Part shown: positions 30,170 to 33,312 of the stretch, piece by piece | Layout of the letters: each line of letters starts with the position of its first letter | How positions within the stretch are numbered: position 1 is the first letter of the stretch | Source: Bdellovibrionales bacterium | GTDB taxonomy: Bacteria; Pseudomonadota; Alphaproteobacteria; Micavibrionales; UBA2020 | Direction of reading: 5' to 3' | Length of the DNA stretch: 64,000 bases | Assembly (NCBI GenBank): GCA_038247245.1 | Contig: JBBRVE010000001.1 | Location: forward strand, 2,296 to 66,295 | Notes under the pieces: generated by a model | Seen by the model: only the letters and a program-made list of their open reading frames with translations | The model's database searches: none | What the model was told of the DNA's origin: nothing | Position numbers and translations under genes: made by a program

Positions 30170-30685
30170 TCAGGCTTTTTTATCTTCCACATGCGGGCAG
30201 CGCGCCATGATCGTGCCGGCCGCAACAAGGAAAGAGTCCTTGTCCGTCATCGCCTGCTGCTGCAGGCTGATCTTGCCGTCCGTATGCCGGATGACAAGGT
30301 AGTTCTGCCCCTGTACCGACATCATCGTCAGTTTCGTCACATCGGCAAAGCGCACGAATTCCATACGCTTTTCAAAAAAGCCGACAGGGATGGTGAAGCC
30401 GTCTTCAGCCACGCGGATATAGGTCGCTTCGCCCGCCTGCAATTGCGTGATGATGGCGATCATGCTGGCAATCGCGGCAACGCCAAGGAGAGCGGAAATG
30501 CCCCATAGCACGCGCGTTGCGCCCTCCACCTCCAGCTCAATCGCATGGAACAGGATCATGCCACGGTCATTTGTCATCGCCGTATGCGCCATGAACCATG
30601 ACAGCAAAACCATGAAGGGAAACAACAGCGCCAGTTTCTTGACGTTGGTTTTATACGGATATTCGATGTTATCGAGGGTGGTCAC
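30170..30685 (-). CDS. Hypothetical membrane protein (2 TM plus a possible bacterial PH-like C-terminal domain)
   Basis: Two hydrophobic helices, then YIRVAEDGFTIPVGFFEKRMEFVRFADVTKLTMMSVQGQNYLVIRHTDGKISL. The start overlaps the upstream gene's stop (ATGA). Confidence 0.6.
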   Translation of the reverse strand: MTTLDNIEYPYKTNVKKLALLFPFMVLLSWFMAHTAMTNDRGMILFHAIELEVEGATRVLWGISALLGVAAIASMIAIITQLQAGEATYIRVAEDGFTIPVGFFEKRMEFVRFADVTKLTMMSVQGQNYLVIRHTDGKISLQQQAMTDKDSFLVAAGTIMARCPHVEDKKA

Positions 30686-33312
30686 GATGCAACGCGGATG
30701 CGGCGGCGGAGCGGCACGATCGCCTGTTGTTCTTCGGCCTGTTCGCCATTTTCTTCGGCGACCGGCAGGGCAACTGCATGGAGGAGCGAGCAGCCGTCAC
30801 GATATAGCTGGATGCGCTTGATGCCCAGTTCCCAGCCGAGCAGCAACAGTTTCTGGACATCATCGACCGAACTGTAATGGCCAAGCTCGACCGTATGGCA
30901 GGCGGTGCCGGACAGAAAAGGTTCAACGGCGGCCTGCATACGCACCTGCGCTTCGGGCGATACGCGGCGCACGCCGGAACCGGACGGCGTCAGGCAGTCA
31001 AAAATGCCCAGCTGTTTCGGGAACAGGTGCGGCGCGCCCTCGAGGGTCATTGCGCCGCAGCAATACAGGTTCGCGGCCTCGATCTCGTCTTCGGTGAAAC
31101 GCATCGCGGTCAGCATATCGAACGTGCCGCTGGCCAGTTCCTGCGTGGTGAAGCCCAGCATATGGCGGCAGAAATCTTCGCCCAGCGTCCATTTGTTGAA
31201 CGCATAGCGGATATGCTGCGCGGTGCGGAGCGCAACCTCGAGCGCGTCCAGCGCGGCCTGATGGAAACCCTTGGCCTTCAATTCCGCATGGCTGATACCG
31301 GGCGCATCCAGCAGCGTGCCGTGACCGACCGCATAAAAACTGATCCCGTCGCGTTCCTGCGCGTTGAAGCCCATTTTCTGCAACGCCTGCGCCGCCATCG
31401 GGTTCAGTTTTTTGCCGTAGATTTCGGCGGCGTCGTTGCCATCGGCGAAATAACCCTCGAACCTTACCAGCGACGCTTCCGGCGCGATATCGCGCGTCTG
31501 GCCGCCCAGCAGGGCCTGCAGCTGCTCATCCGTGTCCATCGCGGTCAAATGCGCGTGGCGGAAACCTTTTTCTTTGCCAAGCGCATAGGCGCGCGCCCAT
31601 GCACCCTTCACCGCCTCGACCAAAGACTGGTCGGGGCAAAGCGCGGATTTCAATTCGGCGGGGCGGCGCGACAGGCCTTTTTGCATGTAGGATGTGCCTG
31701 CAACCGCGCTCATTTTATCCTTCACGGCCTGCAGATATTCTTTTTTCATGGGCGCGAAACCGGCAAAGGCGCCTGCCGCAACCGCGATTTCTGCGGAGGC
31801 TTCATGCGCCGCACCAGACATCAATGCAGCAACCAGTGCCGCGGTCGCGCGTCCCGCATCGCTGTCATAACCCAGCATATTCCCCATCAGCAGCGCGGAA
31901 AGGCCGGACATGCCGATCGAGACGGGGCGATAGGTGACCGCTTTTTCAGGCAATGCCGCAAAAACGAACGACGCCTCGAGCGCGATCATGAGGATTTTAA
32001 CGGTATGCTGCAGTTTTTCAGCATCCAGCAGGACGCCGCCCTGACGGTTCGCGAATTTCAGCAATTGCAATGTCGCGGCGGGCGCGGCTGTATCGTGCAG
32101 GAACACGACGCCCCCCTGCCCGCTGACCGCGAGCGGCGCTGTGGACTGGAACGCGGATGCGGCAGCCGTGCTGTCGCGGAATAAAATCGCAGGCTCGCCG
32201 GTTGCCCAGACGGCATCGGCAATCCCGTTCCACAATTTTTCGGCGGGGTAATGGCCTTTCGCCTCGCCCGCATCGCGCAGCAGGAAACCGTGGCCGGTCA
32301 GCGCGCTTTCGATAAATTCATCGGGCACAGATAGCGTGGCAGATAATTGCGGCGCCGCGGGTTCTTCCGCATGGGTAAACAAATCGATTTCTTCCGCGCC
32401 CTGTTGCGCCGCATGCACCGCCATGCGCAAGGGCGCTTCGGGCACGCCGGCGCGGCGCGCATCCATCATGGCCTGACGGAGTTGCAGATTATGTTCGGGA
32501 TCGAAACCGAATACTGAATCACGGTCGCAGGCGTCCATCACATGATGCAGCGCGGCCTCCAGCGTTTTGCCACCCACTTCCTGCGCGACGGACGCGACAT
32601 CCGATTGGCGTTTCATGGCAACGAAAGCAGGGCTGTCGGCGTTTTCGACCGGCAGTGTCACGGAAATTTTGCGCGTACCGCCATCCAGGGCCTGCCGTTC
32701 GCCCAGGACTTTCAGGCGGCGCAGGATATTTTTCTGCGGCGTGTCGGCCGCAACCGCAATACCGGCACCGCCGGCGTTTTCGCCGAACAGCGCATCGGAA
32801 AAACCCGCAATGCGCGCAGCGGGAATAAACGGCGCGTCGAGATCGTATGCCCAATCCAGCCCCGCCGTCGCCAGCAGCGCGATTTCGGGCAATGCGATCT
32901 GGTGCAGCAGGATGTGGCGGAATTCATCATAGAACGCGCGCGCGTCGTCTTCGGAATCAAACAACCCGGCCTTCCAGCCGTGATAGCAAAGCCCGCCCGC
33001 GATGCGCGCGAAGCATTCGCGGAAATCACGCTCATGCCGGAAACGCCATTCGGCGGAAATGCCGTCCAATCCCGCATCATCCGGTTCGCGCCGCCACAAA
33101 AACTGCGGCACGCCGTCTTCCGGCACGGGTTTCATCAAGGCGGGGATGGCGGTTTTGCAAAAGACCTGTTCGACCAGCACTTCGGCGGCGCTGCGGCCCC
33201 AGAGGGCGGGCACGGCGTATTCGGCGAAGTCGCCGTCCTGATGGATACGCTGCGCCACCCCTTTGACGGGGTCGGTATCCAAACGGGTATAGAGTCGCGG
33301 CACGCGCATCAA
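30682..33312 (-). CDS. Class II (B12-dependent) ribonucleotide reductase-like protein with catalytic residues apparently lost; C-terminally shorter than NrdJ
   Basis: Colinear NrdJ-like blocks: VPQFLWRR, FYDEFRHILLHQ, LLKF, IGMSGLSALLMGNMLGYDSDAGRATAALVAALMSGAAHEASAEIA, AFNKWTLGEDF, EIEAANLYCCGAMTLEGAPHL, LYRDG. The active-site loop reads SGQGGVVFLHDTAAPAATLQLLKF. Confidence 0.75.
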   Translation of the reverse strand: MMRVPRLYTRLDTDPVKGVAQRIHQDGDFAEYAVPALWGRSAAEVLVEQVFCKTAIPALMKPVPEDGVPQFLWRREPDDAGLDGISAEWRFRHERDFRECFARIAGGLCYHGWKAGLFDSEDDARAFYDEFRHILLHQIALPEIALLATAGLDWAYDLDAPFIPAARIAGFSDALFGENAGGAGIAVAADTPQKNILRRLKVLGERQALDGGTRKISVTLPVENADSPAFVAMKRQSDVASVAQEVGGKTLEAALHHVMDACDRDSVFGFDPEHNLQLRQAMMDARRAGVPEAPLRMAVHAAQQGAEEIDLFTHAEEPAAPQLSATLSVPDEFIESALTGHGFLLRDAGEAKGHYPAEKLWNGIADAVWATGEPAILFRDSTAAASAFQSTAPLAVSGQGGVVFLHDTAAPAATLQLLKFANRQGGVLLDAEKLQHTVKILMIALEASFVFAALPEKAVTYRPVSIGMSGLSALLMGNMLGYDSDAGRATAALVAALMSGAAHEASAEIAVAAGAFAGFAPMKKEYLQAVKDKMSAVAGTSYMQKGLSRRPAELKSALCPDQSLVEAVKGAWARAYALGKEKGFRHAHLTAMDTDEQLQALLGGQTRDIAPEASLVRFEGYFADGNDAAEIYGKKLNPMAAQALQKMGFNAQERDGISFYAVGHGTLLDAPGISHAELKAKGFHQAALDALEVALRTAQHIRYAFNKWTLGEDFCRHMLGFTTQELASGTFDMLTAMRFTEDEIEAANLYCCGAMTLEGAPHLFPKQLGIFDCLTPSGSGVRRVSPEAQVRMQAAVEPFLSGTACHTVELGHYSSVDDVQKLLLLGWELGIKRIQLYRDGCSLLHAVALPVAEENGEQAEEQQAIVPLRRRIRVAS

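Follow-up and report, generated by a model that had tools for sequence, protein, structure and literature searches.

A stretch of 64,000 nucleotides (nt) from a Bdellovibrionales bacterium, hereafter the window (assembly GCA_038247245.1, contig JBBRVE010000001.1, positions 2,296–66,295 of the forward strand), was analysed for a large open reading frame (ORF) that resembles nrdJ, the gene for class II, vitamin B12-dependent ribonucleotide reductase (RNR). The ORF occupies 30682..33312 on the minus strand and encodes 876 amino acids (aa) from the listed TTG start. An ATG at 33309, which gives a product of 875 aa, is probably the true start, because relatives begin MRxxRxYT. A preliminary description of the sequence had taken the product for a full-length class II RNR homologue with a gutted active site, and the homology was confirmed. 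Pfam assigned the domains Ribonuc_red_lgC (PF02867, E 7.8e-32) and Ribonuc_red_2_N (PF08471, E 4.5e-18), and the best sequence match in the PDB was NrdJ of Rhodobacter sphaeroides (7b9p, E 3.8e-127), an enzyme of the NrdJd type. Scores against curated NCBIfam models fell below their cutoffs: 523.5 bits against 1737 for NF005736, 118.2 against 399.95 for TIGR02504 and 54.7 against 906 for NF005401. Other sequences that lack the catalytic residues, called dead below, scored 58–104 bits on NF005401. No curated NCBIfam family captured the window protein or the wider dead-clade members tested, the 'RNR-like protein' family NF005401 included.

An AlphaFold2 (AF2) model built on an 85-sequence alignment had a mean pLDDT of 90.5 and a pTM of 0.89, with low confidence only at residues 621–631 and in the C-terminal tail (846–876). 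The model superposed on R. sphaeroides NrdJ (7b9p/7b9q) with a TM-score of 0.82–0.86; in Foldseek the match to 7b9p had an E of 1.6e-55 and TM-scores of 0.86/0.84. Thermotoga maritima NrdJ and class I R1 proteins had lower Foldseek scores than the R. sphaeroides enzyme, the class I R1 structures reaching ∼0.46–0.48 when normalised to the query (∼0.6 to the target) at 10–13% identity. As modelled, the class II RNR fold is retained, with its ten-stranded alpha/beta barrel, the NrdJd N-terminal domain and the NrdJd insertions.

A search of 5.8 billion proteins returned 84 family clusters of 790–940 aa, 37–96% identical to the window protein and all carrying PF02867 and PF08471. Below them, identity stepped down to canonical NrdJ proteins of ∼1200 aa at 32–35%. 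The family is more diverse than the canonical enzyme: mean identity was 51% (minimum 29%), as compared with 72% (minimum 64%) in canonical NrdJ sampled across whole classes. This divergence fits a relaxation of enzymatic constraint followed by new, lighter constraints.

In the alignment to 7b9p, the finger loop of the window protein (residues 397–420) reads SGQGGVVFLHDTAAPAATLQLLKF and has no thiyl Cys, Asn or Glu. Residue by residue, SGQ-GGVVFLHDTAAPAATLQLLKF is set against the canonical NrdJ finger loop, with SGQ-GGV in place of SNPCSE. The preliminary description had placed this replacement, with loss of the thiyl Cys, its Asn and Glu partners and the betaF Cys, at nt 32053–32124, which proved exact. 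Its further conclusion that the redox Cys of betaA is lost was also upheld, although the motifs it had paired (DAPFIPA with HACFIQS) are a few residues off, the strand being AARIAG.

The same losses extend through the family. In a joint alignment of the 84 family clusters with 36 canonical NrdJ sequences, NPCSE and the downstream CN were missing from 84/84 clusters and intact in 36/36 canonical proteins. Counted by column over 85 family sequences, the position of the thiyl Cys is a gap in 82 and has no Cys in the other 3; the betaF Cys is replaced by Ala in 82 of the 85, and the betaA position holds A, V, L or S and never Cys (0/85). The six cysteines of the C-terminal Cys-rich domain (CRD) are missing as well. 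The finger-loop tip is deleted in ∼12 members, which argues that the cavity is dispensable. Loss of the catalytic cysteines is selective. All conserved Cys of the family correspond to non-catalytic conserved Cys of canonical NrdJ, and those at positions 262, 752 and 773 of the window protein are kept in 81, 85 and 72 of the 85 sequences respectively. From the residues that are missing, the protein is predicted to be incapable of ribonucleotide reduction.

Conservation outside the active site is strongly regional. Canonical NrdJ has 487 columns with a conservation of 95% or more, and the family retains 118 of them. Numbered on the canonical protein P0086, the betaA/loop1/loop2 specificity region (200–299) keeps 0 of 73 such columns and has lost ∼50 residues, the finger loop (450–549) keeps 7 of 56 and the PTGT region (650–699) 7 of 33, while the NrdJd-specific peripheral segments (550–599 and 700–849) keep 48 of 66. 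In the window protein the phosphate loop APTGTIG has become MDTDEQL, and SKTINMP has become CHTVELG.

The C-terminal region of NrdJ is absent, as the preliminary description had said, the protein ending 36 residues (rather than about 30) beyond LYRDG at residues 836–840. The CRD/TSCPD domain PF12637 was found in 0 of the 84 clusters, and tblastn detected no CRD remnant at the locus, including the sequence beneath the adjacent ankyrin gene. Turnover by NrdJd enzymes depends on the CRD (Loderer et al., 2017; PMC5704485). The tail of the window protein (residues 850–876) consists of an acidic stretch followed by VPLRRRIRVAS. It resembles the canonical linker and the beginning (KLPLRRKGYTQK) of the lost IscU-like domain, so that the point of truncation coincides with a domain boundary; similar acidic-then-basic tails occur in relatives. 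The coordinates of these and neighbouring features are collected in Table 1.

Table 1. Features of the dead nrdJ locus, in coordinates of the 64,000-nt window.
Feature	Position	Strand	Evidence
Dead NrdJd orthologue, 875 aa	30682..33309	-	Pfam, NCBIfam, PDB sequence match, AF2/Foldseek, dN/dS
Class II RNR N-terminal domain PF08471, aa 32–138; VPQFLWRR and FYDEF kept	32899..33219	-	Pfam, alignment
betaA strand AARIAG, aa 165–170; first redox Cys replaced; ∼50 residues deleted in flanking loop1/loop2	32803..32817 (ARIAG, aa 166–170)	-	Alignment and model
Most conserved subfamily block, vmDACDRd..GFDp..N..L...AR.aG, aa 255–310, helical NrdJd insertion	32383..32550	-	Alignment; weak TACO1/YebC_N-like Pfam match
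Finger-loop remnant SGQGGVVFLHDTAAPAATLQLLKF, aa 397–420; NPCSE gone, betaF CN replaced by AP	32053..32124	-	PDB alignment, joint alignment
MDTDEQL in place of substrate-phosphate loop APTGTIG	31519..31539	-	Alignment
NrdJd-specific peripheral insertion, aa 640–790, strongly kept: GHGTLLDAP, FNKWTLGEDFC, CCGAMTLEGAPHL; non-catalytic Cys752 and Cys773 retained	30943..31395	-	Alignment
Acidic disordered tail ending PLRRR, vestige of linker and LPxRRKGYTQK start of lost IscU-like/Zn-finger CRD	30685..30765	-	Model, alignment
Divergent intergenic region shared with NDUFA12; no NrdR box; motifs TGTGTCACATT (33371–33381) and GCAACTTTTTTCT (33428–33440)	33310..33496	.	Scan, comparison of dead loci
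171-aa lineage-restricted ORF, GTG start; two predicted long helices and weakly PH-like C-terminal domain	30170..30685	-	ORF list, AF2, Foldseek
NDUFA12-family gene, upstream synteny marker of the ancestral nrdJ slot	33497..33886	+	Locus comparison
RidA/YjgF gene, downstream synteny marker	28363..28824	-	Locus comparison
Convergent ankyrin-repeat gene between dead gene and RidA; in many family loci, not all	29342..30169	+	Locus comparison

The helical insertion at residues 255–310 gave a Pfam match to the TACO1/YebC N-terminal domain that is weak (E 0.007; 17 bits against a cutoff of 36) and serves as a lead only. Similar weak matches occur elsewhere in the dead family and in many canonical NrdJd proteins (P0086 and P0087 among them), and the origin and role of this insertion in NrdJd appear undescribed. 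PDB matches of residues 225–320 to Kelch/SAKe proteins were discarded as an artefact of summation over repeats, every single domain having an E above 10.

Selection on the gene was estimated by the method of Nei and Gojobori, as pairwise ratios of non-synonymous to synonymous substitution rates (dN/dS) against orthologues. Against a 94%-identical orthologue (locus L009) the ratio was 0.062 at a dS of 0.62, and it was uniform over six segments of the ORF (0.04–0.085); against an 84%-identical orthologue it was 0.126. The neighbouring genes in the L009 pair had higher values (NDUFA12, 0.24; the ankyrin gene, 0.18; the 171-aa ORF, 0.31). The low and uniform dN/dS points to strong purifying selection and indicates that the dead nrdJ gene is functional.

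At every family locus examined, a divergently transcribed NDUFA12 gene precedes the dead gene; MlaD and DUF2155 lie farther out, usually together with aat (the gene for Leu/Phe-tRNA-protein transferase). Among canonical alphaproteobacterial nrdJ loci, NDUFA12 was found at most 6 kb upstream in ∼60, MlaD in 30 and aat in 36. On the other side, 15 canonical loci have RidA directly after nrdJ and on its strand, and at the family loci RidA is the nearest downstream gene that is conserved. These shared flanks indicate that the dead gene is the lineage's own nrdJ, inactivated in place, and not the additional paralogue that the preliminary description had supposed.

The NrdR boxes typical of alphaproteobacterial nrdJ appear to be gone from the subfamily. 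Scanning 400 nt upstream for the NrdR consensus (at least 12 of 16 matches) revealed NrdR-type boxes at 30 of 51 canonical loci, several of them in the typical tandem spacing of ∼31 bp, as compared with 0 of 51 in an in-gene control. At a relaxed threshold of at least 11/16, nine of the 11 subfamily loci scanned had no box, and the other two (L003 and L092) had only weak 11/16 matches. An Rfam scan of the window found one tRNA, and no B12 riboswitch or other RNA element. Judged by its upstream region, the dead gene has lost the regulatory wiring of RNR genes. Two motifs occur in the NDUFA12/dead-nrdJ intergenic region, TGTGTCACATT, which contains the palindrome TGTGnCACA, and GCAACTTTTTTCT, both read on the minus strand. 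They are conserved in the closer dead loci (the window locus, L009, L007 and L005), with variants in L008 and a variant of the second motif also in L010, and may represent a candidate promoter or operator in place of NrdR boxes.

An exhaustive profile search of 1.84 billion representatives at 50% identity gave 1972 matches at E ≤ 1e-30. Catalytic residues were checked in 142 new top representatives (P0136–P0277), ∼9 alignments disrupted by inteins being discounted. Some 80 of the 142 lacked the thiyl Cys and most other catalytic residues, and ∼18 of these ∼80 retained the IscU-like linker, the Zn-finger CRD or both. A distance tree contained one bipartition with 80 of the 81 dead sequences on one side and all 63 intact sequences on the other; the one dead sequence not grouped in this way is an intein artefact. 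The dead NrdJd proteins apparently form one clade, which comprises at least 80 clusters at 50% identity. The betaF CN reads AP in 20 dead sequences and CP in 10, which suggests stepwise loss from CN through CP to AP.

One representative, P0149 (1197 aa; locus L089:1199-4792), combines a dead site (ASSSDSALMFLDGSFAPQAT) and the AP of the family with a CRD that is complete in its IscU-like and Zn-finger parts. Its gene occupies the NDUFA12/nrdJ slot and has a 14/16 NrdR box at −67. These features give it the look of a transitional state. That P0149 might seed a CRD-bearing dead subfamily was considered and rejected: it is a singleton in the database, and its nearest relatives (∼41% identity) are intact NrdJ proteins. 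A further dead form, P0311 (1004 aa), occupies the same slot in a different lineage.

The genes next to the dead gene were considered as partners. The preliminary description had proposed a two-gene unit with the 171-aa ORF, joined by an ATGA stop/start overlap. The ORF exists; the overlap is GTGA, with a GTG start. In the entire database its homologues make up 15 clusters, none below 63% identity, within a genus-level clade. Where present (L004/L007, L009, L087 and L088) it directly follows the dead gene, and it is missing from family loci at 64, 59, 55, 47 and 37% identity. It also evolves ∼5 times faster than the dead gene (dN/dS 0.31 versus 0.06). The PH-like C-terminus that had been suggested found weak support: in the low-confidence AF2 model (pLDDT 65) a strand is followed by two long helices, then by several strands and a C-terminal helix; the top Foldseek matches were all PH-superfold domains at E ∼1e-2, and in a comparison with the bacterial membrane-anchored PH-like proteins (bPH/STM3941 family), NF041635 scored 20.5 bits against a cutoff of 40. 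Being confined to 15 clusters, missing from most family loci and fast evolving, the 171-aa ORF was rejected as a family-wide partner. It is a real, local, translationally coupled add-on.

The ankyrin gene abuts the dead gene in many loci. All nine of the loci studied first had it (9/9), but L091 and L093 lack it, and another gene intervenes in L092; it too was set aside as a partner. Nor is it a likely cause of the CRD truncation, in that no CRD remnant lies beneath it. No conserved operon partner was found across the family loci examined. Ankyrin-repeat genes cluster at the window locus (29342–30169 and probably 26504–27361, both on the plus strand) and also at L001, L004, L008 and L087. Ankyrin, 171-aa, 201-aa and 267-aa genes were gained independently in different relatives between the dead gene and RidA, which marks this interval as an insertion hotspot. 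Just upstream of RidA, an ORF of ∼59 aa (28886–29065, minus strand; MGHEEKFPDGDAWAATITDD...) has no Pfam match and corresponds in position to genes of 57–67 aa called in nearly all dead-family loci.

Taken together, these results make it very probable that the gene is a catalytically dead nrdJ orthologue maintained by selection, a pseudoenzyme in which the fold is kept and the active site gutted, much as the preliminary description had it. The overall explanation that we favour, with modest confidence, is that this in-place orthologue has become non-catalytic and acts through its surfaces, deoxynucleoside triphosphates (dNTPs) coming from elsewhere. The ancestral nrdJ would have been converted, in its own slot, to a protein that works through the N-terminal domain, the YDSDAGRA helix and the helical NrdJd insertions and not through the old active-site cavity. 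Its role would be one of binding, or of a scaffold or regulator, perhaps as a second, non-catalytic function already present in the ancestral NrdJd. The N-terminal domain and the insertions are favoured as the functional parts because they are best conserved and carry polar residues invariant in the subfamily (D260, D263, R264, E307, E335, T339, H341, R549/R550 and R702/Y703). A surface role is preferred to a ligand pocket or a new chemistry because the finger loop is deleted in some members and no new polar site is conserved clade-wide. As a mechanism taken by itself, the surface-acting scaffold or regulator is put forward tentatively. Deoxynucleotides would be supplied by a different RNR, which we assume to exist, or by salvage; within the window and the locus flanks, no other RNR was found among the 10 large window ORFs scanned or in the precomputed Pfam annotation of the flanks.

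Several points weigh against this explanation. The preference for surface over cavity was drawn from sequence regions, and both candidate neighbours, the 171-aa ORF and the ankyrin gene, fail as family-wide partners. Any binding partner or ligand of the dead NrdJ is putative. The distance tree behind the monophyly of the dead clade is vulnerable to long-branch attraction. The broad dead clade shows no new conserved polar residues and no shared catalytic site, and its subclades may differ in role, or the role may be purely structural.

A first alternative, raised in the preliminary description, is a ligand sensor or carrier: adenosylcobalamin or a nucleotide would still be bound by the dead barrel, which would signal or buffer the amount of that ligand. 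In its favour, the protein keeps the fold, LYRDG and some of the C-terminal barrel strands, and the polar residues invariant in the subfamily could line a pocket. However, the phosphate loop is lost, ∼12 members lack the finger-loop tip, which adjoins the cofactor/substrate site, no polar site is conserved across the broad clade, and the window holds no B12 riboswitch or other Rfam element. A nucleotide sensor working through the RNR specificity site in particular is hard to reconcile with the obliteration of that region (0/73 columns, ∼50 residues deleted). We regard a ligand sensor or carrier as unlikely.

The protein might instead be a non-catalytic partner subunit that modulates the stability or regulation of an active NrdJ or another RNR alpha subunit encoded elsewhere, much as yeast Rnr4 acts on Rnr2. 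NrdJd subunits are known to cross-talk in oligomers (PMC5704485), and the transitional P0149, which keeps its CRD and NrdR box, would fit a helper co-regulated with RNR genes. The subfamily itself, however, has lost the NrdR operator, the CRD and the canonical dimer/specificity interface region, and the gene is the slot orthologue and not a duplicate; among the matches listed, no canonical NrdJ lay on the same long contigs, which is a very weak point. This makes a helper subunit rather improbable. Recruitment of the scaffold for a different reaction, with new residues, would accord with a dN/dS of 0.06 and with the invariant Asp, Arg, Glu, His and Thr specific to the ∼850-aa subfamily. These residues are not common to the wider dead clade, though; Pfam and NCBIfam scans of the protein revealed no new cofactor-binding motif or domain, and no conserved operon partners hint at a pathway. 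A new enzymatic activity is accordingly held to be improbable.

It is also conceivable, but a long shot, that the carriers, possibly predatory or host-dependent alphaproteobacteria, have no RNR homologue left but the dead NrdJ. De novo deoxynucleotide synthesis would then have been abandoned in favour of supply by prey or host, and the enzyme repurposed, for example through its YebC_N-like and NrdJd-specific insertions. If this were true, the clade of at least 80 clusters would represent a protein family so far overlooked, with a biology of its own. That the lifestyle is predatory is assumed here: only two of the carrier metagenome-assembled genomes (MAGs) are labelled Micavibrio sp., the others 'Alphaproteobacteria bacterium'. 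One carrier MAG, DASPMW01, is labelled Patescibacteria and is probably a mis-binned or mislabelled alphaproteobacterial contig. A decaying pseudogene, or a misalignment hiding shifted catalytic residues, both of which the preliminary description had raised against itself, has nothing in its favour beyond the missing residues and is refuted by the present results: the ORF is intact in 84 clusters down to 37% identity with dN/dS of 0.06–0.25, and the registers from hidden Markov model, MAFFT and structure-based matches agree, with no Cys in the finger-loop or betaA segments.

Canonical NrdJd (R. sphaeroides NrdJ, 7b9p/7b9q; NF005736) shares with the dead protein the fold, the N-terminal domain, the insertions, the NDUFA12–RidA slot and 32–35% identity over the whole length. 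The dead protein differs in lacking the catalytic residues, phosphate loop, specificity loops, IscU-like and Zn-finger CRD and NrdR operator, and its family evolves faster. RNR is generally taken to be essential and close to universal, and few motifs in biology vary as little as those of its active site. Inactive members are known. Yeast Rnr4, which Rnr2 requires for its folding and activation, is an inactive paralogue of the RNR small subunit; like the present protein it is a dead RNR-family subunit under selection, but it is a beta-subunit duplicate in a heterodimer with its active paralogue, whereas the present protein is of the alpha, catalytic type and remains at the original locus.

The best functional analogy is with the R1 homologues of betaherpesviruses, UL45 of human cytomegalovirus, M45/vIRA of murine cytomegalovirus and U28 of human herpesvirus 6B, which are catalytically inactive homologues of the RNR large subunit (PMC5469499, PMC11772975). 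There, too, the RNR alpha fold was kept after activity was lost, and the proteins were repurposed for non-catalytic roles. They are class I, of eukaryote type, and act on host signalling proteins, while the present protein is a bacterial class II protein whose nearest relatives are bacterial NrdJd, and the inactivations have no common origin. CRD-less second copies of NrdJd, treated as enzymes, have been listed for Frankia, Pannonibacter and Polymorphum (Loderer et al., 2017; PMC5704485, supplementary table). They share the absence of the C-terminal domain, but they are extra to a CRD-bearing copy and loss of catalysis was not reported for them, unlike the slot orthologue described here; the organisms of the present family are not in that table. 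NF005401 (PRK06948), 'ribonucleotide reductase-like protein', is likewise an RNR-like category, to which the window protein does not belong.

The dead NrdJd family is apparently undescribed. In the searchable literature we found no paper joining class II RNR with the term 'pseudoenzyme', no mention of dead class II sequences in the large RNR phylogenies examined, no discussion of RNR in papers on Micavibrio and no paper for PDB 7b9p. With the ancestral nrdJ itself deprived of catalysis, allostery, re-reduction and NrdR control but kept at a dN/dS of ∼0.06, the dead clade would give the herpesviral dead R1 proteins their first counterpart in bacteria and in class II. It would imply a second function of NrdJd, non-catalytic and either original or acquired, that resides in insertions as yet poorly understood. 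The transitional forms offer a readable order of events: P0149 has a dead site with the CRD and NrdR box still in place, and betaF runs from CN through CP to AP. There is a practical consequence for annotation. NCBI names the family 'hypothetical protein', while JGI auto-annotation calls its members (P0001–P0084) 'ribonucleoside-diphosphate reductase alpha chain', and UniRef is listed as a source for no family cluster. The JGI name may mislead metabolic reconstructions into crediting these uncultured lineages with a B12-dependent RNR and a dependence on B12. The source of dNTPs in the carrier organisms becomes a directly testable question.

Away from the nrdJ slot, the G+C content of the window drops to 0.50 at 62001–64000, as compared with ∼0.58–0.60 elsewhere. 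This segment adjoins the only tRNA gene of the window (63636–63724, minus strand) and may be the edge of an integrated element.

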